A stretch of 64,000 bases of DNA from assembly GCF_003991155.1 (NCBI RefSeq), contig NZ_CP031293.1, one strand, 5' to 3'. The notes beneath the pieces are model-generated. The model was not told the DNA's origin. It saw nothing but the letters and a program-made list of their open reading frames with translations, and did not search any database. The position numbers were made by a program, and so were the translations under genes. Origin of the DNA: Escherichia coli (lineage in GTDB: Bacteria; Pseudomonadota; Gammaproteobacteria; Enterobacterales; Enterobacteriaceae). Every line of letters begins with the position of its first letter. The stretch's first letter is position 1. Positions 10,134 through 45,450 of the stretch are shown one piece after another.

Positions 10134-11723
10134 TTAATGCTCGCGGGTCTGGTGGAACTGAACGTCCGGATAACGTTCCTGCGCCAGGCGCAGATTGACC
10201 ATGCTGGTAGCGATGTAAGCGAGGTTATCGCCGCCATCAAGCGCCAGTTGGCTTTCGTTCTTACGCTTGAACTCTTCGAATTTCTTCGCGTCCGCACATT
10301 CTACCCAGCGGGCGGTGGCAACGTTGACTGACTCATACACTGCTTCAACGTTGTATTCGCTCTTCAGGCGCGCTACCACCACATCAAACTGCAGCACACC
10401 AACCGCGCCAACGATCAAATCGTTGTTGGAGATCGGACGGAACACCTGCACCGCGCCCTCTTCGGAAAGCTGTACCAGCCCTTTGAGCAGCTGTTTTTGC
10501 TTCAGCGGATCTTTCAGGCGGATACGACGGAACAGTTCTGGCGCGAAGTTCGGAATACCGGTGAACTTCATCATCTCACCCTGGGTAAAGGTGTCGCCGA
10601 TCTGAATGGTGCCGTGGTTGTGCAGACCAAGGATATCGCCAGGATACGCTTCTTCAACGTGCGAACGGTCACCCGCCATAAAGGTCAGCGCGTCGGAGAT
10701 CACCACATCTTTCGCAGTACGCACCTGGCGCAGCTTCATGCCTTTTTCATATTTACCGGACACCACACGCATAAACGCCACGCGGTCGCGGTGTTTCGGG
10801 TCCATGTTGGCCTGAATTTTAAATACGAAGCCGGTAAATTTGTCTTCGCTCGCCTCTACGGTACGGGTATCAGTCTGACGCGGCATCGGCGCTGGGGCCC
10901 ACTCCACCAGGCCATCCAGCATATGATCAACGCCGAAGTTACCCAGCGCAGTACCAAAGAACACTGGAGTAATTTCGCCCGCAAGGAACAATTCTTTGTC
11001 GAACTCGTTAGACGCGCCTTTCACCAGTTCCAGTTCGTCACGCAGCTGCTGTGCCAGATCTTCACCAACCGCAGCGTCGAGATCCGGGTTATTCAGCCCT
11101 TTAACAATGCGGACTTCCTGAATGGTGTGGCCTTTACCGCTCTGATAGAGATAGGTTTCATCTTTATAAAGGTGGTAAACGCCTTTAAACAGCTTGCCGC
11201 AGCCAATCGGCCAGGTGATCGGTGCGCAGCCGATTTTCAGCTCGTTCTCAACTTCATCGAGCAGTTCCATCGGGTCGCGGATATCACGGTCAAGTTTGTT
11301 CATAAAGGTGAGGATCGGCGTATCGCGCAGACGGGTAACTTCCATCAGCTTACGGGTACGATCTTCAACACCTTTTGCAGCGTCGATAACCATCAGGCAG
11401 CAGTCCACCGCAGTCAGGGTACGATAGGTATCTTCCGAGAAGTCTTCGTGCCCCGGGGTGTCGAGCAGGTTAACCAGGCAATCGTGATACGGAAACTGCA
11501 TCACAGAAGTAGTAATGGAGATCCCACGCTGCTTTTCCATCTCCATCCAGTCCGACTTAGCGTGCTGGTTGGAACCACGGCCTTTTACTGTACCGGCGGT
11601 CTGAATGGCCTGTCCGAACAGCAGCACCTTCTCGGTGATGGTAGTCTTACCGGCGTCCGGGTGAGAAATAATGGCAAAAGTGCGGCGCTTCGCCACCTCT
11701 TGCAAATAAGGAGACAACGTCAT
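10134..11723 (-). CDS. prfC: Peptide chain release factor 3 (GTPase)
   Basis: ORF 10134..11750; translational GTPase motifs [12 protein letters not shown] and DTPGH; internal start [14 protein letters not shown] gives 529 aa. Confidence 0.93.
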
Positions 11724-11813
11724 AATTCTTTCTTCTTGAGTAAGCGGCATCGCGCCGCGCTTGTTGAAAACGAAAAATTGCGGCTATTTTACCCATCAAC
11801 GGGGGGGAGGCAA

Positions 11814-12491
11814 TCAGTGTTTACACAGGAGCTGCTCCAGTTCGTGCAACGAAGAAACGGTCCAGGTGGGCGCGATGCCTTCTGGTTGCTCGCGATTGTG
11901 CGCATTCAGCCAGCAGGTCGCAAGCCCGGCGTTGATGCCACCGAGAATATCGGACTCGGCAGTGTCGCCAACCATCAGCACGCGTGAACGGTCAGGATTG
12001 CCCGCCTGTTCCAGCGCATAATCGAAAATTTTCTTATTCGGTTTGGCAACGCCAACTTCTTCGGAAATCACCAGCAAATCGAAATAATCACGCAGGCCCG
12101 TGCGTTCCAGACGCACTTGCTGCAAGGCGCTAAAGCCGTTGGTGATGATGCCGATTTTGGCGTTGCCGCGAATGGCATTAAGCAGGGAAACCGCGCCCGG
12201 CAGCGGTGTGCAAATTTCCGCCATGGCATTAATGAAGGCCTCGTTGAGTTTACCTGGCTCGACGTTCAGCCGTTCGGCCCAGCTCTCAAAACGCCCGTGC
12301 TGAAGCTGTAATGAAGTGATCGCGCCGTTTTGATAATCTACCCACAGGGGCTTGTTAACGGCCTGATAGTCCTGAAAATCTTCAGCGGTAAAAGTGACGC
12401 TGTAATCAAGAAACATCCGCTGCAGTCCGGTGAACGAGTCAAAGGTAAACAGCGTTTCATCGGCATCAAAGAAAATCCAGTCCCACTTCAT
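11814..12491 (-). CDS. yjjG: HAD-family pyrimidine 5'-nucleotidase YjjG
   Basis: 225 aa; HAD motif [10 protein letters not shown] at the N-terminus. Confidence 0.88.
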
Positions 12492-12505
12492 TATTCCACC
12501 TTGTC

Positions 12506-12952
12506 TTACATACTGATTGGCAACGCCATGATGATGGCGTCTTCGCGACCGTCCTTGGTGGGGTAGTAATTGCGGCGAATCGTCGCCTCGTTAAAGCCTA
12601 AACTTTCGTACAGGGCAATGGCGGCAGCGTTTGAGGCACGGACTTCCAGCCATAGTGTCGCCACGCCGCGTTTTTCCAGTTCGTCGATCAGATGTTCCAG
12701 CAGCGCCCTTCCCAGCCCCTGACGCTGATAGTCGGGATCGACCGCAATATTGAACAATGTAGCTTCATCCAGCACCACTTGCGTAATCGCAAACGCCGCC
12801 ATTTTGCCGTTTTGCGTTAACTGAAAGTTGAGATAACGCTCGCCCTGATTACTGGCAAAGGTTTTTTCACTCCACGGAAAGGCGTGGGCGCGTTGTTCAA
12901 TGTGGTAAGCCGCTGGTAAATCAGTCGTTTCGAGGGAAGAAATCGTGTTCAT
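12506..12952 (-). CDS. rimI: Ribosomal-protein-S18 alanine N-acetyltransferase (GNAT)
   Basis: 148 aa; GNAT motif [13 protein letters not shown]; overlaps the upstream holD 3' end. Confidence 0.9.
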
Positions 12953-13334
12953 ATGTGCAAATTTGTTGCCATAACGCGGCGCGTGCCGTTGGGTTTGCCC
13001 GTAATTCGGTGAGCGCCGGTGATGCCACCTGAGCGCCTTCCAGTGATAGCGGTTCGTCAGTACCCAACCGCCAGCTGTTGCAGCGACTGCCTTGCGGCAG
13101 CATCGCGATTTTTTCTGGCGTCAGTTGCAGCACTTGATCGGGGCTGACGGTTAATGCGCGCAGAACATCGCTCACTAAAGGATCGGTCAGGGCGGGAAGA
13201 TCATTTGCCACCATCACCAGACGGACGTGTGCCGGGATCGCAATGGCAATCTCCCCCTGCAACGCGCCAGGGCGACGCAGCGACCACTGGGTAATGCCCA
13301 GTTGCTGTAACTGCCAGTCTCGTCGGGATGTCAT
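12921..13334 (-). CDS. holD: DNA polymerase III psi subunit
   Basis: 137 aa; conserved position and overlap with rimI. Confidence 0.88.
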   Translation of the reverse strand: MTSRRDWQLQQLGITQWSLRRPGALQGEIAIAIPAHVRLVMVANDLPALTDPLVSDVLRALTVSPDQVLQLTPEKIAMLPQGSRCNSWRLGTDEPLSLEGAQVASPALTELRANPTARAALWQQICTYEHDFFPRND

Positions 13335-13436
13335 AGCGAATCGCTCCTGTTGTCAGGGGCGCAAATATAGCAAATTCGTCGATACCGCGCCAACATATGG
13401 CTATAATCGCCGCCAGTATCAATTGAGGAGCATTCC

Positions 13437-14468
13437 ATGTCTGCATTTACCCCGGCAAGTGAAGTCTTGCTGCGTCACAGTGATGATTTCGAACAAAGCC
13501 GTATTCTGTTTGCCGGAGACTTACAGGATGACCTGCCCGCGCGTTTAGATACCGCGGCCAGCCGTGCTCATACCCAGCAATTCCACCATTGGCAGGTGTT
13601 AAGCCGCCAGATGGGGGATAACGCCCGTTTTAGTCTGGTCGCCACGGCGGATGATGTCGCAGATTGCGATACGCTGATTTACTACTGGCCGAAGAACAAA
13701 CCGGAAGCCCAGTTCCAGTTGATGAATTTACTTTCTCTGCTGCCGGTGGGCACGGATATTTTTGTCGTTGGCGAGAACCGCAGCGGCGTGCGCAGCGCCG
13801 AGCAGATGCTGGCAGATTATGCGCCGTTGAATAAAGTGGACAGCGCTCGTCGCTGTGGCCTCTATTTTGGTCGTCTGGAAAAACAGCCAGTATTTGATGC
13901 CGATAAATTCTGGGGCGAATATAACGTCGATGGCCTGACGGTCAAAACGCTGCCTGGCGTGTTTAGCCGCGACGGTCTGGATGTCGGTAGCCAGTTGCTG
14001 CTCTCGACGTTAACCCCGCACACGAAAGGTAAAGTGCTGGATGTCGGCTGTGGCGCGGGCGTACTTTCGGTTGCCTTTGCGCGCCATTCACCGAAAATTC
14101 GTCTCACTCTGTGCGATGTCTCTGCGCCAGCGGTAGAAGCCAGCCGCGCAACACTTGCGGCCAACGGTGTTGAAGGTGAAGTCTTTGCCAGTAACGTCTT
14201 TTCCGAGGTGAAAGGTCGTTTTGATATGATCATCTCCAACCCGCCGTTCCACGATGGGATGCAAACCAGCCTCGATGCGGCGCAAACGCTGATTCGCGGC
14301 GCGGTGCGTCATCTTAATAGCGGCGGCGAGCTGCGAATTGTAGCGAACGCCTTCCTGCCTTACCCGGACGTGCTGGATGAGACATTTGGCTTCCACGAAG
14401 TGATCGCGCAAACCGGGCGCTTCAAGGTATATCGCGCCATTATGACCCGCCAGGCGAAGAAAGGTTGA
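13437..14468 (+). CDS. rsmC: 16S rRNA (guanine1207-N2)-methyltransferase
   Basis: 343 aa; SAM-binding [11 protein letters not shown] and NPPFH motifs. Confidence 0.9.
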
Positions 14469-14469
14469 G

Positions 14470-14650
<181 letters not shown>

Positions 14651-14699
14651 TCCTGATGGACATTTTTCCAGCAATTACACCTCCGGCGATAATTAACTA

Positions 14700-14727
14700 T
14701 TGACGAAAAGCTGAAAACCACTAGAAT
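14700..14727 (+). promoter_or_regulatory. Sigma70 promoter of the tRNA-Leu operon (TTGACG, 16-bp spacer, TAGAAT) with GC-rich discriminator
   Basis: Near-consensus -35/-10 hexamers about 40 bp upstream of the first tRNA; GCGCCTCC discriminator typical of stringently controlled stable-RNA promoters. Confidence 0.7.
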
Positions 14728-14768
14728 GCGCCTCCGTGGTAGCAATTCTTTTTAAGAATTGATGGTAT

Positions 14769-14855
14769 GCGAAGGTGGCGGAATTGGTAGACGCGCTAGC
14801 TTCAGGTGTTAGTGTCCTTACGGACGTGGGGGTTCAAGTCCCCCCCCTCGCACCA
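14769..14855 (+). tRNA. leuV: tRNA-Leu (anticodon CAG), copy 1
   Basis: 87-nt sequence GCGAAGGTGGCGGAATTGGTAGACGCG...CTCGCACCA with encoded CCA and long variable arm; anticodon CAG at 14803..14805. Confidence 0.95.
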
Positions 14856-14883
14856 AAAACCACGTTGATATTGCTCGCACTGG

Positions 14884-14970
14884 GCGAAGGTGGCGGAATT
14901 GGTAGACGCGCTAGCTTCAGGTGTTAGTGTTCTTACGGACGTGGGGGTTCAAGTCCCCCCCCTCGCACCA
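14884..14970 (+). tRNA. leuP: tRNA-Leu (anticodon CAG), copy 2; one substitution (T at 14931) relative to copies 1 and 3
   Basis: 87-nt tandem copy, identical apart from the single variable-arm difference. Confidence 0.95.
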
Positions 14971-15004
14971 AACGAGGCGATATCAAAAAAAGTAAGATGA
15001 CTGT

Positions 15005-15091
15005 GCGAAGGTGGCGGAATTGGTAGACGCGCTAGCTTCAGGTGTTAGTGTCCTTACGGACGTGGGGGTTCAAGTCCCCCCCCTCGCACCA
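15005..15091 (+). tRNA. leuQ: tRNA-Leu (anticodon CAG), copy 3
   Basis: 87-nt tandem copy identical to copy 1. Confidence 0.95.
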
Positions 15092-15129
15092 ATTATCTTT
15101 ACTTCCTTTCTTGTTGCTTCCCTGTTTTA

Positions 15130-15366
15130 TCATCCCTGCTTCAAATTCATTATCATCAGCATGATGCCAGCAATAAGCGCCAGGCACGATGGTAGCAAAA
15201 CGTAATGCCGCAACTGTTTGTGATACAGCATCACCGGCGTCAATACTAATCCCATCAGAATGACAATCCGCCACTGATCCGGCGATAAATCCGCATACAT
15301 CAGCCCTGCAATCAGCAATCCCGGCAGCAACACTCCCCAGCCACTGCCCAGCGTACGTTGCAACAT
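15130..15366 (-). CDS. yjjZ: Small inner-membrane protein YjjZ (Fur-regulated)
   Basis: 78-aa hydrophobic product from an internal ATG of ORF 15130..15477; divergent from fhuF with a Fur-box-like site immediately upstream. Confidence 0.65.
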   Translation of the reverse strand: MLQRTLGSGWGVLLPGLLIAGLMYADLSPDQWRIVILMGLVLTPVMLYHKQLRHYVLLPSCLALIAGIMLMIMNLKQG

Positions 15367-15384
15367 GGTTTCATCTCTTTCATT

Positions 15385-15403
15385 GATAATGATAACCAAT
15401 ATC
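15385..15403. promoter_or_regulatory. Fur box (GATAATGATAACCAATATC) in the yjjZ promoter region
   Basis: Close match to the Fur consensus GATAATGATAATCATTATC. Confidence 0.65.
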
Positions 15404-15473
15404 ATATGATAATTTTTATCATTTGCAAGCCAGAGAAATCCCTTGCTATCGGGTAAACCTATCGATAGGATTA

Positions 15474-15488
15474 GCAATCATTATCATT
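15474..15488. promoter_or_regulatory. Fur box (GCAATCATTATCATT) just upstream of fhuF
   Basis: Fur-consensus-like hexamer repeats about 20 bp upstream of the fhuF start. Confidence 0.6.
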
Positions 15489-15506
15489 TAGGTTACTATC
15501 CCGATT

Positions 15507-16295
15507 ATGGCCTATCGTTCCGCACCGCTCTATGAAGATGTTATCTGGCGAACGCATCTCCAGCCGCAGGATGCTGGGCTTGCACAAGCCGTACGGGCGA
15601 CGATCGCCGAACATCGTGAACATTTGCTGGAGTTTATCCGCCTGGATGAACCCGCTCCGCTTAACGCCATGACGCTGGCGCAATGGTCATCACCGAATGC
15701 GCTAAGTTCTCTACTCGCGGTCTATTCCGATCATATCTATCGCAACCAACCTTTGATGATCCGCGAGAACAAACCGCTGATCTCACTATGGGCACAATGG
15801 TATATCGGCCTGATGGTGCCACCATTAATGTTGGCGCTGCTGACGCAGGAAAAAGCATTAGATGTGTCGCCGGAACATTTCCACGTTGAGTTTCACGAAA
15901 CCGGACGCGCCGCCTGTTTCTGGGTCGATGTGTGTGAAGATAAAAACGCAACACCACATTCGCCGCAGCAGCGAATGGAAACGTTAATCAGTCAGGCGCT
16001 GGTTCCGGTTGTGCAGGCACTAGAAGCAACGGGAGAGATTAACGGTAAACTTATCTGGAGCAATACCGGTTATTTGATCAACTGGTATCTGACTGAGATG
16101 AAACAGCTGCTCGGCGAGGCGACGGTTGAATCGCTGCGCCATGCCCTCTTTTTTGAGAAAACGCTCACTACCGGTGAAGATAATCCACTCTGGCGTACCG
16201 TGGTGCTGCGCGACGGCCTGCTGGTGCGCCGCACTTGCTGCCAGCGTTATCGCTTGCCGGATGTGCAGCAATGTGGTGACTGTACGCTGAAATAG
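15507..16295 (+). CDS. fhuF: Ferric-siderophore reductase FhuF (2Fe-2S)
   Basis: 262 aa; C-terminal C-C-x10-C-x2-C cluster (RRTCCQRYRLPDVQQCGDCTLK). Confidence 0.9.
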   Translation: MAYRSAPLYEDVIWRTHLQPQDAGLAQAVRATIAEHREHLLEFIRLDEPAPLNAMTLAQWSSPNALSSLLAVYSDHIYRNQPLMIRENKPLISLWAQWYIGLMVPPLMLALLTQEKALDVSPEHFHVEFHETGRAACFWVDVCEDKNATPHSPQQRMETLISQALVPVVQALEATGEINGKLIWSNTGYLINWYLTEMKQLLGEATVESLRHALFFEKTLTTGEDNPLWRTVVLRDGLLVRRTCCQRYRLPDVQQCGDCTLK

Positions 16296-16333
16296 AAAAA
16301 TTTGCCGGGGAAGTAAACCCGGCATTAAGCGTA

Positions 16334-17011
16334 TTAATAGGGGTGCAACACGTTACTTGCTTCGCAATGACGCATACATAACAGAATGTCTGCGGCCTCC
16401 AACAGCCCTGCATCAGAACTGACGCCCAGTTTCGACATCACATTAAATTTATGTGCACGGATCGTTTTGATATTGCGTTTAAGCTGCTCGGCAATTTGTG
16501 TCATTGAGTAGCCACGCGACATAAAGCGCAATATTTCTCTCTCCGTCGGGCTTAACGTCCGGCTTTGGTTAATGTACCACTGATTGTTCAGTCGATCGGT
16601 CGCCTGACGTACACCATTTAATGACAAAAAGAGTTCCTGATGAAAAATCTCCAGCGTTGACGCTTTACTTAATACACCGTCCAGCGGTGATGGCGACAAT
16701 GAACCAATCAGCCGAGCTTCAATATCATCATCCGCAATAACTAAACGCCGGGTACGCGGAAACTTAATCGCCAGTTCAGTCAGGCAGGATAATCCCTCTC
16801 TGCGCGCACTTCTCATGGCAGAAAAAGAAAAAATGACCGCCGCAAACGAGATCCGCGACATGGCATCCTGAAATGACTCCTGACTGGTATAGGTATGGAG
16901 CTTATAAGGGTTACCCGCAAACTTTCTGAATAAACTCTCAATACCGATACTGCTCATGACGCATTTTTCTATGAGTGCGACATTTCTCTTCTTAATTCGG
17001 CTGTGTTCCAT
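16334..17011 (-). CDS. bglJ: LuxR-family transcriptional regulator BglJ
   Basis: 225 aa; C-terminal LuxR-type HTH ([45 protein letters not shown]); overlaps the yjjQ 3' end. Confidence 0.85.
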
Positions 17012-29662: not shown

Positions 29663-30568
29663 ATGGTACAAAGTATCAATCTTCTTCGAACCAGTGATAC
29701 TCCTATGGCTTATAGCATCGATATCATCTCCTGCATTACCGAACGGTTTATGGCGTTAACAGCCACTGAAAAGCGTATCGCACAATTTATTCTTGATGAC
29801 GTCTCTGCCGCAGTAGAGTTGCCAATTGCTGAGCTGGCACGGTTAACGCAAACCAGTCAGGCGTCGGTGACGCGTTTTGCCCGTGCACTGGGGTGCAAAG
29901 ATGTCCGCGAGTTGAAAGTCAAACTGGCGCAGTCACTGGCTGTCGGGCAGCGGTTTATTCTCGATGTACCGGATCTTGACGGTGTTCAGGGGATCTACGA
30001 AGCGATTATTAGCGTGCTGGAGACGCATCGTCGTTCGCTGGATATGAATGCCATCAGCCAGGCTGTAAGCTGGTTAAGTCAGGCGCGGCAAATTCTTGCG
30101 TTAGGAACTGGCGGCGGTTCCACTATCTGTTCACAGGAGATTCAGTACCGTTTATTCCGTCTGGGGCTACCGGTGGTCAGTCAGAATGATGCCCTGATGA
30201 TGAGAATGATGTGCTCGGCAGTCATGCCGCAGGATGTGGTGATTGTGCTTTCGCTGGGCGGTTATACACCGGAAATCATCGAAAGTGCGGCAATCGCCCG
30301 TCAGTATGGCGCGCGTGTTATTGCCATTACGCCAGCACAAACACCGCTGGCGGAACAGGTGGATCTGGTATTGCCGTTACTGGTTCAGGAAAGTGATTAC
30401 ATCTTTAAGCCCACCCCTTCCCGCTACGCGATGTTAGCCATGGTCGATGTACTGGCAACAGAACTGGCAATGGCAAATAAAGCGCAGGCGAAAGATCGCC
30501 TGCGGCGGATAAAACTCGTGTTAGACAGCCACCGTGGGGGCGCTAACCGCCAGCCACTTGGCGATTAG
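29663..30568 (+). CDS. RpiR/MurR-family transcriptional regulator (HTH plus SIS sugar-phosphate-binding domain)
   Basis: 301-aa ORF (start may be internal, about 29705); HTH region TEKRIAQFILDD...ELARLTQTSQASVTRFARALG; SIS-like motif LGTGGGS. Confidence 0.75.
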   Translation: MVQSINLLRTSDTPMAYSIDIISCITERFMALTATEKRIAQFILDDVSAAVELPIAELARLTQTSQASVTRFARALGCKDVRELKVKLAQSLAVGQRFILDVPDLDGVQGIYEAIISVLETHRRSLDMNAISQAVSWLSQARQILALGTGGGSTICSQEIQYRLFRLGLPVVSQNDALMMRMMCSAVMPQDVVIVLSLGGYTPEIIESAAIARQYGARVIAITPAQTPLAEQVDLVLPLLVQESDYIFKPTPSRYAMLAMVDVLATELAMANKAQAKDRLRRIKLVLDSHRGGANRQPLGD

Positions 30569-30577
30569 CATTGTCGG

Positions 30578-32047
30578 TTATGCTTCTTCAGGTTTGGTGA
30601 TCACGACACTCTGGTTTTCACGCTCATTGGTGATAATAGCCAAAGCTTCTTCCCGGCTGACCTGACTTGCTGGCGTTACCAACGTCACCAGTACGCCAGC
30701 GACCAGGCTGCCCAGCACTGACGGAATACACGGGTTACCCCAGTAAGCCAGCCAGTCGGCATTCATCAGCACCACAATTGACATCACCATACCGCTCACT
30801 AACGCCGCCAGCGCGCCCTGCCAGTTAAAGCGTAGCCAGAAGCGACCGAGAATCGAGCAGATAAACAGCCCGGACATCAGCATCGAAATCATTTTGGTAA
30901 TGTAGCTGATGATGTCATTAGAGGTCAGAGCAAAGACCAGCGCCAGGCCAATAACAAAGGTCAACATCCAGCGTGAGTAAGTAATGGCCTTGTCCTCCGG
31001 CGGCATTCTGCCGGTAATCATGGTGTAGACGTCGCGCATCATAATCGCCACCGCCGCGATGGCATCGGAGCTGGCAGAAGACATGGTGGCTGAAAGCCCG
31101 GCAATCAGCACCACCAGCCCAAGAATGGCAGGTAAGAAACTGGTCGCGAACAAGAAGGCGTAGTTGCTGTTTTCCAGATTTGGGTTCATGGTGAACGCCG
31201 CCATGCCGATAATGGCAGGCAAAATCGAGAAGAACAGATATAACACCCCAGTAATAACAAACGAACGGCGTACAGAGGGAACATCTTTACCCGAGTAAAT
31301 ACGCTGGCGATAAGACGGTGTGGCCAGTACGCCGACACCAATAACCAGCGCCAGCGAAAGCGCAGGTAGAACGCCCATTTTATCAATCGCAAACAGGCTC
31401 ATCGCTTTTGGGTCCATCGCCTGTTCAATCGCACTCCAGCCGCCAACGTGAACAACGGCGAGAATAGCCATCAATATAAAGCCAAAGAACAGAATTAAGG
31501 CCTGAATGGTGTCTGTCCACACTACCGCCGAATAACCGCCGATAATAACGTAAATCGCAAAAGCTAAGGCGATAATTAATTTTGCTACAGTAAGATCAAT
31601 ACCTGTTGCCCAGGCAAGATACATACTGCCACCTAATATATGCGCCCCCAGCCAGCCAATAGAGGCAATAAATATCATCAGGCCGACAATATTTTTAATT
31701 AAATGACTCCCGCCAGTATAATAAGATATTTCTTCACTCATGGTCATAAAACGTAATTTACGTACCGGTGCAAACAGCCACGCCACCAGTAATATACCTA
31801 CGGCCCCACCGACGCCATAAAGCATTCCGGCCCAGCCATTGCTGTAGCCAAAGCCCACGGCGCCCATACTGGAACCCGTGCCAACCATCGTGGCAACGGT
31901 TGAGCCCAGCGTCAGAAACAGCGGCAACGAACGCCCGCCCAGCAGAAAATCTTCTCCGCTTTTCTGATTACGAGACACAAACCAACCAAGCCAAATCATG
32001 GCGATGGCATAAATAATAAAGCCGACTAAAAAGATATGACTGTTCAT
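30578..32047 (-). CDS. Sodium:solute symporter (SSS) family transporter
   Basis: 489 aa, highly hydrophobic, SSS-like N-terminus (GGRSLPLFLTLGSTVATMVGTGSSMG). Confidence 0.75.
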   Translation of the reverse strand: MNSHIFLVGFIIYAIAMIWLGWFVSRNQKSGEDFLLGGRSLPLFLTLGSTVATMVGTGSSMGAVGFGYSNGWAGMLYGVGGAVGILLVAWLFAPVRKLRFMTMSEEISYYTGGSHLIKNIVGLMIFIASIGWLGAHILGGSMYLAWATGIDLTVAKLIIALAFAIYVIIGGYSAVVWTDTIQALILFFGFILMAILAVVHVGGWSAIEQAMDPKAMSLFAIDKMGVLPALSLALVIGVGVLATPSYRQRIYSGKDVPSVRRSFVITGVLYLFFSILPAIIGMAAFTMNPNLENSNYAFLFATSFLPAILGLVVLIAGLSATMSSASSDAIAAVAIMMRDVYTMITGRMPPEDKAITYSRWMLTFVIGLALVFALTSNDIISYITKMISMLMSGLFICSILGRFWLRFNWQGALAALVSGMVMSIVVLMNADWLAYWGNPCIPSVLGSLVAGVLVTLVTPASQVSREEALAIITNERENQSVVITKPEEA

Positions 32048-32149
32048 AATTCACATCCTGCCAGTAGAGAGAGAATAAAGTAAGAGTTCCCGGAGTGCTG
32101 AATGTATTCAGCACTCAATTGCGGTCTATTTTTTTAATTCTTAAATTTA

Positions 32150-32539
32150 TTAGCGGGTCGCGTTATAACAGGTCACATCGACTTCAACTTTACAATCGAC
32201 AACCAGATCAGCTACACAACAAATACGTGCAGGCGGATTCTCGCCAAAAAATTCTCTGAATACTTTATTAAATGACTGGAAATAGCGGGCGTCGGTCAGG
32301 ATCACTTTCACGTGAACCACATCCGCCAGGCTATAACCGGCTTCAGTCATGATGTCGACACAGTTTTGGATCGCCAGTCGTGACTGTTCAACGATACCGC
32401 CTTCTACCACTTCACCGTTTTTCATGGGGGTTTGCCCGGAGACGTACAGCCAGCCGCCCGCCTCAACCGCCCTGGCAAACGGCAAATGCTGCCCGCCAGT
32501 GCCTGTTCCACCTTCCGTACCGTAACGTTTAATACTCAT
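32150..32539 (-). CDS. RidA/YjgF-family reactive-intermediate (enamine/imine) deaminase
   Basis: About 129 aa; pattern ...VSGQTP...AGYSLADVVHVKVILTD...PAR... typical of RidA family. Confidence 0.7.
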   Translation of the reverse strand: MSIKRYGTEGGTGTGGQHLPFARAVEAGGWLYVSGQTPMKNGEVVEGGIVEQSRLAIQNCVDIMTEAGYSLADVVHVKVILTDARYFQSFNKVFREFFGENPPARICCVADLVVDCKVEVDVTCYNATR

Positions 32540-32548
32540 ATTCACTCC

Positions 32549-34000
32549 TTAATGTGAGGTCTGGCGGCGCAGGAAGCGTCCCGCACGGCCTGTAATATGT
32601 TTATCGGGACCATAGCTCATAACGCCGTTCACCATCACCGCCTCAATGCCATCTGCCGGGCGTTTGGGATCAGAAAAGCTGGCAACATCACGAATGGTTT
32701 GTGGATCGAACAACACCAGGTCCGCAAAATAGCCGACTTTCACCAGCCCACGCTGAGGCAGACGAAAACGGCTGGCAGAAAGCCCGGTCATTTTGTGGAT
32801 AGCCGTGGTCAGTGGGAATAAGCCTTCATCACGGCAATAGTGACCCAGCACGCGAGGGAAAGCGCCCCATAAACGCGGATGCGGCATGGGATCATTGGGC
32901 AGTCCGTCAGAGCCAATCATACTGACCGGATAACTCAACACTCGGCGGACGTCGCGCTCGTCCATGTTGTAATAGATAGCCCCGGCAGGCATCAGCAACT
33001 TCGCGGCCTCCAGCATACTCATCTGCCAGTCGATGGCGATTTGCGCCAGTGTTTTCCCGGCCTGCTGCGGATGTGTTTGTGACCAGGTGATCACAATATC
33101 GAATTCGTCGGTGACTTGTTTGAGATCCAGCGTTGAAGAGCTGGCTGAGTAAGGGTAGACATCGCAGCCAATTTCCTGGTGTTGACGCATTTGGTCAAAA
33201 AAGGCCAACGTTTCTTTTGTCCGCCCCCAGTTTTTCGCCCCGGCGCATTTATGGTGGGAAACCACGACAGGCACTTTGCCATGACGCCCAATACGAAACG
33301 CCTCATCCAGGGCATCGAGAATCGGTTCAAATTCAGAACGCAGATGGGTGGTATAAACGCCCTTCTCACCGGCTAATTCTTCCGCCAGCGCCATGACTTC
33401 TTCGGTAGTCGCCTGAAATGCCGTTGCATAGGCCAGCCCGGAACTTAACCCCAGCGCCCCCTGACTCAACGCCAGACGTAAGTCGGCACGCATAGCGGCA
33501 ATTTCATCCACCGTCGCCGGGCGAAACAGGTCGTCCATATGGTTATTACGCAGCGCCGTATGACCAATCAGCGTGCCAACGTTCAGTGACGGCCTGGCTG
33601 CTTCCACTGCCTGGGCATAGCTTTCAACGGTAGGATAAATAAAGTGCTCTGCTTCCCCCAACAGATTCATCGGGTCAGGAACTTCACCTTTCATTTTCGC
33701 CGACGCCGCACTAATCCCGCAGTTACCGACAATCACCGTAGTGATCCCCTGGCTGATCTTTGGCAGATATTCCGGGATGCGAATAACGTTGATATCGTCA
33801 TGGGTATGAACGTCGATAAACCCTGGTGCCAGCACCCGCCCTTCCCCGTCAATGACCTGCTGCGCCGTAACGTTAAGCGCAGGGGCAATATCGACAATCC
33901 GATCACCTGTTATTGCCACGTCACCGCGAAATTCAGGGCCGCCGCTACCGTCGATAACGGTCACATTTTTGATTAACCAGTCAACCTGCATGTTCGTCAC
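32549..34000 (-). CDS. N-acyl-D-amino-acid deacylase (D-aminoacylase), amidohydrolase superfamily
   Basis: 483 aa; N-terminal IKNVTVIDGSG...APGFIDVHTHDD metal-binding motif characteristic of D-aminoacylases. Confidence 0.75.
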   Translation of the reverse strand: MTNMQVDWLIKNVTVIDGSGGPEFRGDVAITGDRIVDIAPALNVTAQQVIDGEGRVLAPGFIDVHTHDDINVIRIPEYLPKISQGITTVIVGNCGISAASAKMKGEVPDPMNLLGEAEHFIYPTVESYAQAVEAARPSLNVGTLIGHTALRNNHMDDLFRPATVDEIAAMRADLRLALSQGALGLSSGLAYATAFQATTEEVMALAEELAGEKGVYTTHLRSEFEPILDALDEAFRIGRHGKVPVVVSHHKCAGAKNWGRTKETLAFFDQMRQHQEIGCDVYPYSASSSTLDLKQVTDEFDIVITWSQTHPQQAGKTLAQIAIDWQMSMLEAAKLLMPAGAIYYNMDERDVRRVLSYPVSMIGSDGLPNDPMPHPRLWGAFPRVLGHYCRDEGLFPLTTAIHKMTGLSASRFRLPQRGLVKVGYFADLVLFDPQTIRDVASFSDPKRPADGIEAVMVNGVMSYGPDKHITGRAGRFLRRQTSH

Positions 34001-34191
34001 TCCATTTCTGCAATGGTGACAAGTTAACCATTTACAAGGACGAAAAACAGTGGAAAACTACGCAAAACCCAGATGATTTTATGATACTTTTATTCATAAA
34101 TAATAAGATAAATAAACTAAATATTTATATTTCATTTAGTTACAAATGATACTCACATCCGATACGGTGAAAAACTTAAAAGGTAAATGTT

Positions 34192-35412
34192 ATGAAATAC
34201 CACTCAGAACCTCTGGTTCCCCATAAATCTGCCCTGATGCAAATGCCCGCAAATCTCCTTGCCGAAGATGTCTGTTTACCTGCCGCGATCATTAAAAAGC
34301 AGGCCCTGGAGAACAACATTACGTGGATGCAACGCTACGCTGACGCGCGCGGCGTTTCACTGGCACCGCACGGTAAAACCACCATGACGCCGTGGATTTT
34401 TCAGGCGCAGCAGGCGGCTGGTGCCTGGGCAATAGGTGTCGGTAGCGCATGGCAGGCTGGTGCGGCAATGGCGAGCGGTATTCAGCGAGTGCTGATGGTT
34501 AACCAGCTGGTCGGCAAGGCGAATATGCAGTTGATTGCCCAGTTGCAACGACATTACCCGACGGTCGATTTTATCTGCTGTATCGACAGCATTGAGAACG
34601 CCCGCGCTTTGTCTGCCTTTTTTGCCAGTCAGCAACAGACACTGAACGTGATGATTGAGTTGGGTGTCCCCGGCGGGCGCTGTGGTTGCCGCTCAAGGGA
34701 TGCCGCACTGACACTGGCTAAACAGGCAGCCCAATTACCGGGGTTACGCCTGCGGGGGCTTGAGTTATATGAAGGCGTTTTACACGGTGACGCTCCACAA
34801 CCGCAGGTAGAAGCTCTGCTGCGGGATGCCGCACAACTGGCCTGTGATATGGCAAGTCTGGTTGATGGCGAGTTTATTCTCACCGGAGCAGGCACGGTCT
34901 GGTATGACGTGGTGTGCAATATCTGGCTGGCGGCAGAAAAGCCTGATAACTGCCGCATTGTTATTCGCCCTGGCTGCTACATCACTCACGACACCGGGAT
35001 CTACGACGCGGCACAACAACAGTTGCTTGCCCGTGATCCTGTGGCCTGCGATCTGGCAGGCGATCTCACATCTGCGCTGGAACTGGTCGCCATGGTGCAA
35101 TCGGTGCCGGAAGCTGATCGTGCGGTGGTAAATTTTGGTAAGCGTGATTGCGCCTTCGACGCCGGACTGCCGCAACCAGTCGCCCACTACCGCAACGGCA
35201 AATCACTGGCATTTGATCCACAGGCGATTCGCAGTACAGGTATTATGGATCAGCACTGCATGTTGCAACTGTCAGCTAATAGCGACGTGCAAGTGGGGGA
35301 TATTCTGGTGTTTGGCACATCGCATCCGTGCCTGACCTTCGACAAATGGAAAACGTTGTTATTGACTGATGACGACTACAACGTACTGGCAGAATTAGAC
35401 ACTCTCTTCTAA
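34192..35412 (+). CDS. DSD1-family PLP-dependent enzyme (alanine-racemase-fold D-serine dehydratase / D-threonine aldolase-like)
   Basis: 406 aa; putative PLP-lysine motif LAPHGKTTM near the N-terminus; divergent from the deacylase gene. Confidence 0.65.
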   Translation: MKYHSEPLVPHKSALMQMPANLLAEDVCLPAAIIKKQALENNITWMQRYADARGVSLAPHGKTTMTPWIFQAQQAAGAWAIGVGSAWQAGAAMASGIQRVLMVNQLVGKANMQLIAQLQRHYPTVDFICCIDSIENARALSAFFASQQQTLNVMIELGVPGGRCGCRSRDAALTLAKQAAQLPGLRLRGLELYEGVLHGDAPQPQVEALLRDAAQLACDMASLVDGEFILTGAGTVWYDVVCNIWLAAEKPDNCRIVIRPGCYITHDTGIYDAAQQQLLARDPVACDLAGDLTSALELVAMVQSVPEADRAVVNFGKRDCAFDAGLPQPVAHYRNGKSLAFDPQAIRSTGIMDQHCMLQLSANSDVQVGDILVFGTSHPCLTFDKWKTLLLTDDDYNVLAELDTLF

Positions 35413-39061: not shown

Positions 39062-39092
39062 GGCCGCCATGTGGCGGCCTGAATTATTTTTT
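39062..39092. terminator. Bidirectional hairpin terminator between convergent yjiA and brnA
   Basis: Inverted repeat GGCCGCCA/TGGCGGCC followed by a T-run (TGAATTATTTTTT). Confidence 0.6.
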
Positions 39093-39386
39093 GTTCTGAT
39101 CGCGCAGCATCGCTTCACGTAAAATTGCGTTCAGGCGAGTTTGATAGCCTTTACCTGGTCGCTTCAACCATTCCATCACATCAGAATCAATACGCACCGA
39201 GGCCTGAGTTTTCAATGGCCGATAAAACTTACCGCGTTCTGCGTTAGACCATTGCTCATCGCTGGAAGGTGGGATATCACTGTAATCAATATCTTCGTCG
39301 GATTTATTCGCCAGCGCCTTCAGTTCGGCCTCATGCTGCACATCGAGTGTAGAGGAGGTCCCTCGTTTATGTTTAACCATGCTCAT
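39084..39386 (-). CDS. brnA: BrnA-like antitoxin (COG3514 / DUF4415 family)
   Basis: About 100 aa from an internal ATG of ORF 39084..39527; motifs IDYSDIP and VRIDSDVMEWLKRPGKGYQTRLNAILREAM typical of BrnA; start overlaps the upstream toxin gene. Confidence 0.75.
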   Translation of the reverse strand: MSMVKHKRGTSSTLDVQHEAELKALANKSDEDIDYSDIPPSSDEQWSNAERGKFYRPLKTQASVRIDSDVMEWLKRPGKGYQTRLNAILREAMLRDQNKK

Positions 39387-39687
39387 AGCGATTCCTCTCT
39401 TTACGATCTGCTTTTCGTGCACTGATGATTCGAATAATTTCATTTCCGCTTTCGAAACGGATGGTATGCGCAACCAGAATAACCACGATGCCGTAAACCA
39501 GGCCGATTGTCTGCCAGCGATACTCACCGTTTTCTATGCGTTCTTGCTGTGACAAATGTTGTGGATCATCAAACACTAACACCGCATCTTCAAAGCGGAT
39601 GCCATGTTTCACCCGATTACTTTTGGCCTTGTTTGCATCCCATTCAAACTCCATTGGCATAGTTGCCATCCCTAATTGTATATACAA
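39373..39687 (-). CDS. brnT: BrnT-like toxin (COG2929 ribonuclease, RelE-like fold)
   Basis: 104-aa ORF (true start may be internal); motifs EFEWDANKAKSNRVKHGIRFEDAVLVFDDP and IRIISARKA typical of BrnT; toxin-first order with 14-nt overlap onto brnA. Confidence 0.75.
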   Translation of the reverse strand: MYIQLGMATMPMEFEWDANKAKSNRVKHGIRFEDAVLVFDDPQHLSQQERIENGEYRWQTIGLVYGIVVILVAHTIRFESGNEIIRIISARKADRKERNRYEHG

Positions 39688-39856
39688 AAATGTATCTACA
39701 ATTATTCTGCAATTATAGCGTTGATGTTGGAAATAGCATCACGTTTTGGATAATCAACCATGAAATTGACAATGAGTGAGTTGGACTTGATTCATCCAAT
39801 AGAATTTCTCGCCTGACATGGCACACTAAACACCTCGCTGTCGTTAAGGGATTACC

Positions 39857-41023
39857 GTGAAAAACTACAAAGTCATTACCCCGCTTTTTCCTACCTATGC
39901 GCAAGTTAAGGCTATGATGAAAGCCGTCTCAGGCTATTCCCTGAAAGCGGTGCGCAATATGATTACTGCCATTCACGAGCAAACCGGTACGCCGCAAAAA
40001 CCCGTTGACTGGTCAGAACCCGACCTGTGGATCAGCGAGCGCTTAACGGGTGAAGATGCCGACATCGCCCGTCGTATTTGGGATACCGATAATCACATCT
40101 TGAACCCGCGCCACAGCTACGGCTGCTACTTATTCCTCAACTATCCCCAGTTTGAGCTGATGGAAAGCACACCAGATGATATCTGGCAGCCCACCTCGCG
40201 CGGGCAAAAATTCCTGCAAGATGACGAAAAAACGCTGCGTTCACTGGACGACCAGGAAGGCATTCTGCAACTGCTTGAGCTGCTGGCTGGCCGGGAAATG
40301 TCGCGCCGCGCCGATTTATTGCCGGAATGGCAGGCCTTTTTGCATCAGCATTCGAAATTCGCGTCAGCAAGTTCAGTGAAAAGCACGCTCTACTCCCGTC
40401 TCTATAACCTTATCGACCGTGACATGGTTAACCGTGAAGGCATGAGCTATCGCATCACCGATACCGGGCGCGCCTGGCTTGGAAAAGCGTTGCCAGCACG
40501 AAAAAGCGATCCGCGTAAAGAGCTGTTGGAAGCGGTAAAACGCTATAACGAACAGCAAAAAGAGCTGCTGCGCGAACAAATCAGCACGATGAACCCGTAC
40601 AAATTTGAGCAACTGGTTGGTCAATTACTGGAAGCAATGGGCTACGAGCAGGTCGAAGTGACCAAAGCCTCAGGCGACAAAGGTGTGGACGTGATTGGTC
40701 AGGTGCAGGTCGGCATCACCACTATTACCGAAGTGGTGCAGGTCAAAAGAATGCAGAACACTATCACTCGCCCGTATATCGACCAGTTGCGCGGGGCGTT
40801 GCCTTACCACAAAGCCATTCGCGGTACGCTCATCACCACCGGGAAATTTGCGGCGAAATGTGCAGAAGCGGCGCTCTTTCCGGGTGCCGCGCCCATTACG
40901 CTTATCGACGGCGATCGTTTACTGGAACTGTTAATCGAAAATAACGTCGGCATTCGCCGCAGCAATGCAGTGGAATTGCTGGATGTGGATTTGCAGTTGT
41001 TTGATGAGCTGGAGATGGATTAA
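39857..41023 (+). CDS. Mrr-family (type IV-like) restriction endonuclease with extended N-terminal region
   Basis: 388 aa with GTG start; C-terminal Mrr catalytic-like core (NPYKFEQLVGQLLEAMGY...SGDKGVDVIG...EVVQVKR) and an Mrr-like C-terminal tail; N-terminal half about 80 aa longer than K-12 Mrr (304 aa, from memory). Confidence 0.7.
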   Translation: MKNYKVITPLFPTYAQVKAMMKAVSGYSLKAVRNMITAIHEQTGTPQKPVDWSEPDLWISERLTGEDADIARRIWDTDNHILNPRHSYGCYLFLNYPQFELMESTPDDIWQPTSRGQKFLQDDEKTLRSLDDQEGILQLLELLAGREMSRRADLLPEWQAFLHQHSKFASASSVKSTLYSRLYNLIDRDMVNREGMSYRITDTGRAWLGKALPARKSDPRKELLEAVKRYNEQQKELLREQISTMNPYKFEQLVGQLLEAMGYEQVEVTKASGDKGVDVIGQVQVGITTITEVVQVKRMQNTITRPYIDQLRGALPYHKAIRGTLITTGKFAAKCAEAALFPGAAPITLIDGDRLLELLIENNVGIRRSNAVELLDVDLQLFDELEMD

Positions 41024-41067: not shown

Positions 41068-41244
41068 GTGGTCAAAGCACCAACTAAAAAAGCCAAAGCA
41101 AAGAAAAGCTCTGAAGAAACATTATGTGATACCACAAACCAATTTCGTGGTAGCGTTGAGTCCTCCGAATACAAGCACGTGGTGTTAAGCCTCGTGCTCC
41201 AGAAACTCATCAGCGATAAGTTTGAAGCACGCCGCAAAAAATGA
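41068..41244 (+). pseudogene. Type I R-M methyltransferase HsdM N-terminal fragment (about 58 codons, then stop)
   Basis: GTG start with GGAG RBS; translation ...LCDTTNQFRGSVESSEYKHVVLSLVLQKLISDKFEARRKK* resembles the HsdM N-terminal domain; ends at TGA within an A6 tract. Confidence 0.5.
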
Positions 41245-41903
41245 TTGCCGAAGCGTTAAAAGCTGATGGGATGGAAGAAATTTATTTTTCTGGCGACAAA
41301 AAAGCGGAATCTATCGATATTTTTGACGAAGATTATCTGGCGCGAATTAACAAGATCAAACTTCCAGCAACGAAGATCCTGTTATTACAAAAATTACTGG
41401 AAAAAGCGATCAGCGAGTTCAGGAAAGTGAACCAGTTGCAAGGGATTAACTTCACCCGCCGCTTCCAGGCGATTATAGATCGTTATAATGAGCGGCGAGA
41501 AGATGATGTACTCAACGGTGAAGAATTCGATACATTCAGTCAGGAAATGATTGATATTATCTATGATATTAAAACCGAAATGGGCACCTGGGCCGATTTA
41601 GGCATTGATATTGAAGAAAAAGCCTTTTTCGACATTCTTGCTCATATGCGCGATAAATATCAGTTCACCTATGACGATGAAAAAATGCTGTCACTGGCAA
41701 AAGAGATGAAAAGCGTTGTTGACAACACATCGAAATATCCTGACTGGAGTAAACGCGATGATATTAAAGCGAAACTGAAAGTTGAACTTATTCTGCTTCT
41801 ACACAAGCATAAGTTCCCGCCAGTAGCGAATGATGATGTTTATATGGGTGTGCTGGCACAGGCAGAGAATTTTAAAGAACATCATATGAGTGCTTTAAAT
41901 TAA
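41241..41903 (+). pseudogene. Type I restriction enzyme HsdR C-terminal fragment (DUF3387-like)
   Basis: 220-aa ORF starting at the ATGA overlap with the upstream fragment; motifs LGIDIEEKAFFDIL and ...LLLHKHKFPP... resemble the HsdR C-terminal domain as I recall it; no helicase/nuclease core present. Confidence 0.5.
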
Positions 41904-42059: not shown

Positions 42060-42136
42060 TGTGCGCCAACACACCCGCACCGCTCATCACAATCCCTATT
42101 TCACGAGAATAGTAATCATGACTGACACGCATTCTA
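42060..42136 (-). ncRNA. symR: Probable SymR antisense sRNA (antitoxin of SymE), approximate coordinates
   Basis: Inferred from the known cis-antisense arrangement over the symE RBS and start codon; boundaries not determined from sequence. Confidence 0.35.
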
Positions 42137-42456
42137 TTGCACAACCGTTCGAAGCAGAAGTCTCCCCGGCAAATAACCGTCAATTAACCGTGAGTTATGC
42201 GAGCCGCTACCCGGATTACAGCCGTATTCCCGCCATCACCCTGAAAGGTCAGTGGCTGGAAACCGCCGGTTTTGCTACCGGCACGGCGGTAGATGTCAAA
42301 GTGATGGAAGGCTGTATTGTCCTCACCGCCCAACCACCCGCCGCCGAAGAGAGCGAACTGATGCAGTCACTGCGCCAGGTGTGCAAGCTGTCGGCGCGTA
42401 AACAAAGGCAGGTGCAGGATTTTATTGGGGTGATTAGTAGCAAAACGCCACGCTAA
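42118..42456 (+). CDS. symE: SOS-induced toxin SymE (AbrB-fold RNA-cleaving protein)
   Basis: ORF 42061..42456; product [48 protein letters not shown]... matches SymE. Confidence 0.88.
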
Positions 42457-44493: not shown

Positions 44494-45450
44494 TTAGTAC
44501 TCGATCCATGGATCGCGCTTGCTTTCAGGCAAGGGCTGATCTAATGCCTGCATTTGCTCTGCCGAAAGTCCGGTATATCGTTGTATCCATTCAGGATCCG
44601 CCCCATTCTGCAACAACAATCGGAGGAGGCTCTTTTCCCCTTCTTCTTTCCCTTCTTTCCTCCCCCTCTCCCTTCCCAACAGCCATCCATCATTATGAAT
44701 TCGCTCTGCAATCGTCATTATTCGCTCCCTGTGTTGTGGCATTCGACGGATAAGTTCGCTGATAAACTCATTAAAACGCGCTTCATCGCCAGTCAGTAAA
44801 ATGTAATTTAACAGCGCGGTTATCTGGCTGTCATTAGCGCACCCTGTAACCAGTAATACTGCCAGTTGATCAATAAGCCCCATTAGATCGCGCTGGCGAA
44901 TATGCTTTTGGATCAACTCCAGCAGGGCGACTCTGCGATGCTGCACAATCTCGTCGTCTGGCACGACAGTGACATCCACCAGCGGGAACGCTGCGGTATA
45001 AAGCTTCCGTGCGGTAGCCGGGTCGGCAAATTCATCCAGCCAGCACAAAGACCAGGGGTAAGGACTACGGCTACCGTGATAAAACAGCATCGGGATGACC
45101 AGCGGTAGCGGCCGGCGTTTATCATGCTCGATATGGCGCTGCATCACCGCCATGGAATATCGCATCAGGCGAAAGGCCATATGGATATCCTCGCGGCTCT
45201 GATGTTCAATCACCACATAAATATAGCCATCTCCTTCGCGGGTCTTTACCGACCACAGAATATCGGAATGTAGCGCCCGCAATTTTTCATCGACAAAGCT
45301 GGCGTATTCCAGTTTTAAGCTGTCGAGATCGCACAGTTCACGTAAATCTTTGGGTAAGTGGATCTCCATAAAATCCCGCGCGGTGTCAGGGTGGGTGAGA
45401 AAAGATTTAAATAATGCGTCATGCGGCGTGCTGGTCGTGAAGTTTGTCAT
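44494..45450 (-). CDS. rpnD: Rpn-family recombination-promoting nuclease (PD-(D/E)XK, transposase_31-like); intact ORF
   Basis: 318 aa; N-terminal HDALFKSFL motif typical of Rpn/YhgA-like proteins; E/G/K-rich low-complexity C-terminal linker. Confidence 0.75.

Follow-up and report, generated by a model that had tools for sequence, protein, structure and literature searches.

Endonucleases that resemble the protein studied here combine a DNA-reading part with a nuclease in several ways. EcoKMrr, the 304-residue Type IV enzyme of Escherichia coli K-12, contains a nuclease domain, Mrr_cat, that bears a D...QxK active site and is encoded by a solitary gene at the yjiA end of the Immigration Control Region (ICR), next to the type I hsd genes. 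MspJI and AspBHI hold reader and PD-(D/E)XK nuclease in a single chain, the reader being an SRA-like base-flipping domain. The Type IIS enzyme FokI features several winged-helix (wH)-like recognition sub-domains and a C-terminal PD-(D/E)XK cleavage domain; it is sequence-specific and comes with a cognate methyltransferase. McrBC-type systems use a GTP-dependent AAA+ motor and a separate McrC nuclease, and in DpnI, HhiV4I and the families described by Helbrecht et al (PMC11037411) a winged-helix reader is fused to an interchangeable nuclease. Here, we analysed a 64,000-nucleotide stretch of an E. coli chromosome (hereafter, the window), in which a gene inside the ICR (39857–41023, + strand) encodes a 388-residue protein with an Mrr-type C-terminal half. 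This gene probably specifies a solitary member of the Mrr superfamily that acts as a Type IV (modification-dependent) endonuclease and has a previously undescribed two-domain reader. The gene itself is real and intact; what makes it notable is a reader module that is portable and falls into no known class, together with how often the gene is found at a classic locus.

The open reading frame listing of the window and RefSeq both bear out the gene boundaries proposed in an initial annotation of the sequence, namely a complete coding sequence of 388 residues at 39857–41023 (+) with a GTG start and a TAA stop at 41021–41023. RefSeq gives the same coordinates in a 100% identical genome, and the 100% identical coding sequence of strain 2016C-3878, WP_000800823.1, is labelled only "restriction endonuclease". 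Conservation among distant homologues begins at about residue 5 (KVxTPLFPTY, with P9 invariant), which supports the GTG start. A Shine-Dalgarno-like AAGGGA, read from the sequence, lies 5 nt before the GTG (39846–39851, +).

By sequence, the C-terminal half can be assigned to the Mrr_cat superfamily, in its PD-QxK variant. Mrr_cat (Pfam PF04471) matches residues 243–359 (40583–40933, +) over model positions 2–115 of 115 (E=3.8e-29, 101.6 bits), as expected from the Mrr-type PD-(D/E)XK core that had been recognised there from the strings SGDKGVDVIG (residues 272–281) and EVVQVKR (residues 292–298). These strings are present and hold D274, D278, E292, Q295 and K297, all within the catalytic motif region D274–K297 (40676–40747, +; GDKGVD278 ... 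E292-VV-Q295-V-K297). The five residues are invariant in an alignment of 52 homologues, down to 51% identity and from distant phyla, so that the caveat that nuclease motifs might be missing on alignment did not materialise. D278, Q295 and K297 correspond to D203, Q219 and K221 of EcoKMrr (D203 ... Q219-A-K221). In a BLASTP comparison, residues 216–383 match EcoKMrr 137–304 (31% identity, E=1e-19), covering the linker, the catalytic domain and the C-terminal tail; the likeness to K-12 Mrr therefore takes in the tail, as the initial annotation had noted, and not the N-terminus. The linker (residues 216–246; 40502–40594, +), which aligns with EcoKMrr 137–165, is mostly one long helix (219–244) in the AlphaFold2 (AF2) model and is a possible dimerisation element. 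The acidic tail (residues 366–388; 40952–41020, +) is similar to the EcoKMrr C-terminus and was modelled with low confidence. In a Foldseek search with the full model, the catalytic domains of MspJI and AspBHI, the closest solved structures for this part, come first (E=3.6e-6). The PADLOC model mREase_IV (PDLC03657) matches the C-terminal half only (model positions 143–315 of 317).

Pfam has no family for the N-terminal module, and no relative of it has a solved structure. No Pfam domain is significant in the N-terminal 215 residues, where weak winged-helix profiles at 151–208 were the only matches. The initial annotation had considered that this region might be a standard Mrr_N with insertions, and our searches speak against it: Mrr_N (PF14338) gives no match at E≤10 in the 388-residue protein, none of the 120 homologues shown has PF14338 among its precomputed Pfam domains, and neither hmmsearch nor hhalign against EcoKMrr_N was significant (only an 18–29-residue wing motif, at 4–7% probability). 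NCBIfam gave no family match for the protein, and the PHROGs matches were confined to the nuclease domain and weak helix-turn-helix (HTH) profiles. The AF2 model, built with the 52-sequence alignment (predicted local distance difference test score, pLDDT, 84.9), shows four parts: domain 1 (14–133), domain 2 (136–211), the long helix (219–244) and the nuclease domain. In essence, this agrees with the earlier proposal of two winged-helix-like N-terminal segments, domain 2 being a textbook winged helix and domain 1 apparently containing a divergent winged-helix core.

Domain 1 (residues 1–135; 39857–40261, +) is predicted to be a family-specific helical domain built around this divergent core. 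Modelled alone, it reaches a pLDDT of 92.1 and a predicted template modelling score (pTM) of 0.84, and its elements H55–62, H65–76, H84–94 and hairpin 102–112 fit a winged-helix core, to which two extra N-terminal helices and a conserved loop, both family-specific, are added. The invariant residues (Q42, G44, P46, D51, W52, P55, W58, W75, N83, P84, R85 and G89) map to the loop before the core and to the start of the presumed recognition helix. We call the domain family-specific because all 43 significant Foldseek matches in AFDB50 belong to the same family, after which E-values drop sharply to >0.1. Structurally, domain 1 and the chain as a whole both come closest to FokI, yet the resemblance is weak (template modelling score 0.2–0.3, 10–14% identity). 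Domain 2 (hereafter wH2; residues 136–215, 40262–40501, +) is modelled as a canonical winged helix (H136–144, H151–165, H171–187, E191–194, E197–200; pLDDT 80–95), with weak profile matches to HVO_A0261_N (0.012), HTH_45, Sso10a and phrog_2440. Two of its arginines, R181 and R188, are invariant; they fall within the presumed recognition helix 171–187 or directly behind it. Domain 2 is basic (isoelectric point ~10), whereas domain 1 is acidic.

Aligning domain 1 or wH2 with EcoKMrr_N, or the two domains with each other, by hhalign recovered a short shared wing motif, (W/Y)x(P/I/L)TxxGxx(F/W)(L/V), of 18–29 residues, at 4–38% probability. Because this motif alone can be aligned, neither an internal duplication nor descent from Mrr_N is demonstrable, and we claim neither. 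Searching all PDB chains with the whole protein and an N-domain profile gave the MspJI catalytic domain as the sole match (phmmer E=0.019), matches of the N-domain profile to Hook3 being spurious. No known modification-reader fold was detected in the N-terminal module and, unlike in MspJI and AspBHI, an SRA-like reader is not predicted.

The resemblance to EcoKMrr is thus one of nuclease half and setting: the two proteins share the Mrr_cat D...QxK nuclease, a helical linker and a similar C-terminal tail, and both are encoded by solitary genes at the yjiA end of the ICR beside type I genes. They also occur in E. coli at comparable frequency. One chromosomal copy of the nuclease gene studied here is present in 880 of 5426 complete E. 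coli genomes (16%), and classical mrr in 952. They differ in the orientation of the gene relative to yjiA and hsd and, above all, in the reader, which in the window protein is a 215-residue two-domain unit unrelated to Mrr_N at the sequence level. The 388-residue protein lacks Mrr_N and full-length collinearity and is not an EcoKMrr orthologue, and the specificity of EcoKMrr, which covers some N6-methyladenine (m6A) and 5-methylcytosine (m5C) contexts, is not transferable to it. The concern that it might be a common annotated Mrr orthologue was accordingly half justified, since the gene is common and generically annotated and the orthology does not hold.

The protein does fall into a class that has been named. 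The PADLOC model for PDC-S02 (PDLC04796) matches it over its full length (residues 1–386, model positions 1–383 of 390, E=2.1e-207), PDC-S02 being a computational single-gene class of phage-defence candidates with several sub-models. Because the gene is common, generically annotated and matched by PDC-S02, the novelty lies in the reader module and not in the existence of the gene. In the literature, we found no mechanism or domain analysis of PDC-S02 and no paper describing the N-terminal module. Among enzymes with other readers, FokI differs in that no functional methyltransferase accompanies the nuclease gene in the window. DpnI-type m6A enzymes respond to Gm6ATC methylated by Dam and have a toxic effect on Dam+ E. 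coli, in contrast to the window nuclease, which is stably maintained in this species and shows no sequence similarity to them. The END nucleases were considered and rejected as relatives, since an inactive EndoIII reader is used there (PMC12191111).

To place the module, we turned to its wider family. With more than 900 homologues and a low dN/dS (see below), the 388-residue nuclease is far beyond a chance observation, and proteins of the same full-length architecture are found in Enterobacterales, Halomonadaceae, Thiocystis, Deinococcus and Chloroflexi. When 1.84 billion representative proteins were searched with the domain 1 profile, only 380 clusters were retrieved. Domain architectures were parsed with local hidden Markov models in the best 150 of these 380 representative clusters, and there wH2 follows domain 1 in nearly every sufficiently long protein; the exceptions, with no wH2 match after domain 1, are P0149, P0177 and P0179. 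The effector that follows the module varies. It is Mrr_cat in the majority, which includes the window protein and its ~390-residue relatives. Other proteins carry an McrB-type AAA+ GTPase (P0138, P0164, P0172 and P0188; NF008457, E 1e-63 to 1e-104), HNH (P0165), an NsnA/PD-T4-2A-like effector (P0162), a PDC-M26A-like effector (P0183 and P0185) or a QatA-like ATPase (P0238), and AFDB entries add DUF1524 and AAA+ fusions. The combination of domain 1 and wH2 (dom1-wH2) is a portable reader unit that is re-used on other Type IV and defence effectors.

Module-bearing McrB proteins, such as P0188 with its McrC, contain the identical dom1-wH2 module (domain 1 E 1e-33 to 1e-41) in the place where E. 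coli McrB has its m5C-reading domain. They differ from the window protein in pairing a GTP-dependent AAA+ motor with a separate McrC nuclease, as opposed to a fused Mrr_cat. The P0188 gene is directly followed by a McrC gene and lies within a defence island that also holds GmrSD_N, AIPR and NOV_C genes. Helbrecht et al mentioned, and did not study, "NTD-wH-NTPase" fusions paired with McrC (PMC11037411), and this class may be that of the module-bearing McrB proteins. On a metagenome contig (L011, 938–9833), NOV_C, GmrSD_N and AIPR genes precede a gene for a 922-residue McrB and then McrC; in this McrB, dom1-wH2 stands between the AAA+ domain and a 405-residue leader without a Pfam match, which probably represents a further, uncharacterised domain.

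Domains are also gained upstream of the module. In longer Mrr_cat relatives, HARE-HTH precedes it in 13 of 20 proteins, in one or two copies, and a genuine Mrr_N does so in 4 of 20; in these proteins, the module appears to have been added to a classical reader and not to have replaced it. In P0121 (637 residues), dom1-wH2 is present as a tandem duplicate. Further architectural variants include P0157, P0161, P0148 and P0210, next to the ~13 HARE-HTH-bearing relatives. Effector swapping together with added domains reads as a combinatorial grammar of Type IV restriction readers.

These features lead us to the following picture of a Type IV enzyme. The basic second winged helix would give general affinity for the DNA duplex, and domain 1 would scan it for something foreign; the likeliest candidate is a modification of base or backbone not made by E. 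coli. The long linker helix and the nuclease domains would pair two or more protomers, and the PD-QxK site (D278, Q295 and K297) would then cut the DNA near the bound site. Within this scheme, nuclease competence is backed by the Mrr_cat match and the invariant catalytic residues; our inferences concern the need for modified DNA, how the two reader domains share the work, oligomerisation and the nature of the target. Location in a defence island and the lack of a cognate methyltransferase fit a Type IV enzyme, as do the full-length PDC-S02 match and the settings of homologues next to BREX, next to type I genes with an SBD-HNH gene and on a Vibrio plasmid (see below). The initial annotation had suggested that the N-terminal region may specify a different modified-DNA target, and the replacement of the McrB reader and the HNH and DUF1524 fusions strengthen that possibility. 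The nuclease is evidently not triggered by the methylation of the neighbouring type I system, because the gene lies directly beside intact hsdMSR in other E. coli. E. coli is normally Dam+ Dcm+, a background that would extend this non-triggering to Gm6ATC and Cm5CWGG. Going one step further, we tentatively raise the possibility that dom1-wH2 forms a new family of modification readers, directed at a foreign modification beyond those of McrA, McrBC, EcoKMrr and GmrSD and used as a cassette in at least six effectors (Mrr_cat, McrBC, HNH, DUF1524, NsnA-like and QatA-like). Examples for such a reader would be a hypermodified phage base, 7-deazaguanine, phosphorothioate or methylation in a context that E. 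coli never makes.

The gene is under purifying selection. Two E. coli alleles, that of the window and that of locus L008, differ by 36 synonymous and 6 non-synonymous changes (ratio of non-synonymous to synonymous rates, dN/dS, 0.044), and none of the non-synonymous changes falls in the nuclease half.

Several observations weigh against the Type IV reading. Truncated nuclease alleles of 206–287 residues occur in some E. coli lineages (P0072, P0074, P0077, P0048 and UniProt B7MMP1 of strain S88). Because these truncated forms are represented by tens to more than 100 member sequences, the gene has been repeatedly inactivated in some lineages, whereas strong purifying selection acts on it elsewhere. 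One homologue, from a Chloroflexi genome, has neighbours unrelated to defence. The protein also has a weaker Pfam match to the inactive-REase family NA-iREase1 (E=1.7e-13, 51 bits against 102 for Mrr_cat), which does not outweigh the conserved catalytic residues. We found no activity in the literature for any member of this subfamily. In the only published test of a PDC-S02 representative that we found, in which its subfamily is not stated, E. coli B was not protected against T4, T5 or T7. Finally, EcoKMrr has, according to a review, never been shown to cleave in vitro (PMC12707154), and Mrr-type enzymes can therefore be cryptic.

That the tested representative did not block T4, a phage whose DNA is hypermodified with glucosyl-hydroxymethylcytosine, would also be expected if the protein were a defence nuclease that does not read modification. 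The module would then sense a DNA structure or sequence context, such as replication intermediates, ends or a motif specific to phages, or else a phage protein, and the nuclease would be held off by autoinhibition, as in the sequestration of FokI or in Shedu-type sensor-regulated nucleases. We think this unlikely, although it accommodates the presence of the module on QatA-like ATPase, NsnA/PD-T4-2A-like and PDC-M26A-like proteins, which are not classical Type IV effectors, and the failure to detect a known modification-reader fold. It also draws on FokI, the best structural analogue, which is sequence-specific, has several winged-helix sub-domains and regulates its cleavage domain. However, fusions to McrB/McrC, HNH and DUF1524 effectors and the added HARE-HTH and Mrr_N domains follow the grammar typical of modification-dependent systems. 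Moreover, a solitary sequence-specific nuclease without a methyltransferase should be toxic to its own host, and intact alleles are kept under purifying selection.

A second alternative ties the nuclease to the adjacent type I restriction–modification system, either as a back-up that would fire once anti-restriction proteins inhibit that system or as a co-transcribed accessory of hsdMSR. In most carriers, an intact hsdM-hsdS-hsdR operon apparently lies directly downstream of the nuclease gene, co-oriented and 63 bp apart; we put this at ~800 E. coli genomes, judged from the 880 carriers minus 75 with a scarred operon and from a few loci inspected. In the window, the + strand shows no terminator-like site from the stop codon up to the hsdM remnant, Serratia homologues abut hsdR, and so does classical mrr in K-12. 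Where present, the type I system has its own HsdR. In the window, the operon is destroyed: an N-terminal hsdM fragment (41068–41241, +) is fused to a C-terminal hsdR fragment (41235–41903, +), and the sole hsdM is this pseudogene fragment, so that a functional methyltransferase is absent. The scar is a ~5.5-kb internal deletion of the operon that is intact in HD12481 (L008 positions 11273–16796 are missing here), and the 13-bp overlap of the blastn pieces at its junction (41239–41251) suggests microhomology. The deletion is common to only 75 of the 5426 complete E. coli genomes. Yet the nuclease gene beside it is intact and 100% identical in at least 15 genomes.

The wider distribution of homologues is equally hard to reconcile with a type I partnership. 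E. coli and Serratia do not have the gene in the same orientation relative to hsd; in Serratia, the homologues lie beside type I hsdRSM and an SBD-HNH gene. Other homologues, all without type I genes, adjoin BREX (in Modicisalibacter), sit in non-defence contexts or are carried on a plasmid, and PADLOC models PDC-S02 as a single-gene candidate. We therefore give the type I link little credence. The plasmid in question is the Vibrio parahaemolyticus conjugative plasmid pHLE-202008 (L009, 1902–9158), where a full-length homologue of 48% identity is the last gene of a co-oriented cluster, preceded by a 2.7-kb DNA methyltransferase gene and genes for a helicase-related protein and a GIY-YIG nuclease; this cluster could represent a composite locus for defence that is carried by a mobile element. 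In tblastn searches of plasmids, full-length copies were found on this plasmid and on a mislabelled 834-kb E. coli replicon only. The corresponding search of phage genomes yielded no full-length phage copy: one full-length and one partial match were rejected as mislabelled Salmonella contigs, and a 6-kb faecal "Bacteriophage sp." record holds the nuclease half only, at 29% identity.

That the gene is cryptic or decaying, or encodes a DNA-binding protein with a dead nuclease, and serves no restriction today, would accord with the NA-iREase1 match, the truncated alleles, the negative PDC-S02 representative and the largely cryptic nature of EcoKMrr itself, but is improbable given catalytic residues that are invariant across distant phyla, a dN/dS of 0.044, a nuclease half free of non-synonymous changes, and an Mrr_cat score (101.6 bits) twice that of NA-iREase1 (51 bits).

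The local order around the gene is btsT-yjiX-yjiA (+), brnA-brnT (−), the nuclease gene (+), the hsdM-N/hsdR-C pseudogene scar (+), symE, yjiS, yjiR and an rpn gene, where K-12 has mrr-hsdRMS-symE-mcrBC at the equivalent place. Neither mcrBC nor classical mrr nor any intact type I system is present in the ICR of this strain, which keeps symE (~42118–42456). The toxin–antitoxin pair brnA (39084–39386, −) and brnT (39373–39660, −) is transcribed divergently from the nuclease gene, as the initial annotation had it. We considered brnTA as a functional partner and rejected it; the pair adjoins yjiA in many E. coli genomes without the nuclease and is thus an independent ICR cassette and a mere neighbour. 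The 196-bp divergent region between brnT and the nuclease gene (39661–39856) is the presumed promoter region. Promoter-like matches occur within it at 39663–39691 and 39727–39754 (+), and since promoter and terminator matches at the locus were no more numerous than in shuffled sequence, we assert no promoter for the gene. Elsewhere in the window, an Rpn-family (YhgA-like) recombination-promoting nuclease gene lies within the ICR (44494–45450, −). Between tsr and btsT, which are adjacent in K-12, an extra five-gene block (~29705–35412) encodes a MurR/RpiR regulator, a sodium:solute symporter, RidA, an N-acyl-D-amino-acid deacylase and an amino-acid deaminase, and looks like a D-amino-acid utilisation islet.

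The nuclease gene thus occupies the textbook E. coli defence island in 16% of complete genomes, a share close to that of classical mrr, and apparently nobody has asked what it restricts. Time and again, new readers have been turned into tools for mapping epigenetic marks, as with MspJI, AbaSI and DpnI, and the re-use of this module on McrBC-, HNH- and GmrSD-type effectors marks it as a likely new reader of a DNA feature. A recent EcoSal review records "Mrr" in 22% of ICRs without separating the present form (PMC12707154); our result shows that this survey label lumps at least two distinct specificity modules. If the nuclease is active, many clinical and environmental strains have a barrier to transformation, conjugation and phage therapy that has so far gone unmapped. 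Should dom1-wH2 prove to be a new modification reader, about one in six E. coli strains would carry an unrecognised restriction specificity at the ICR.

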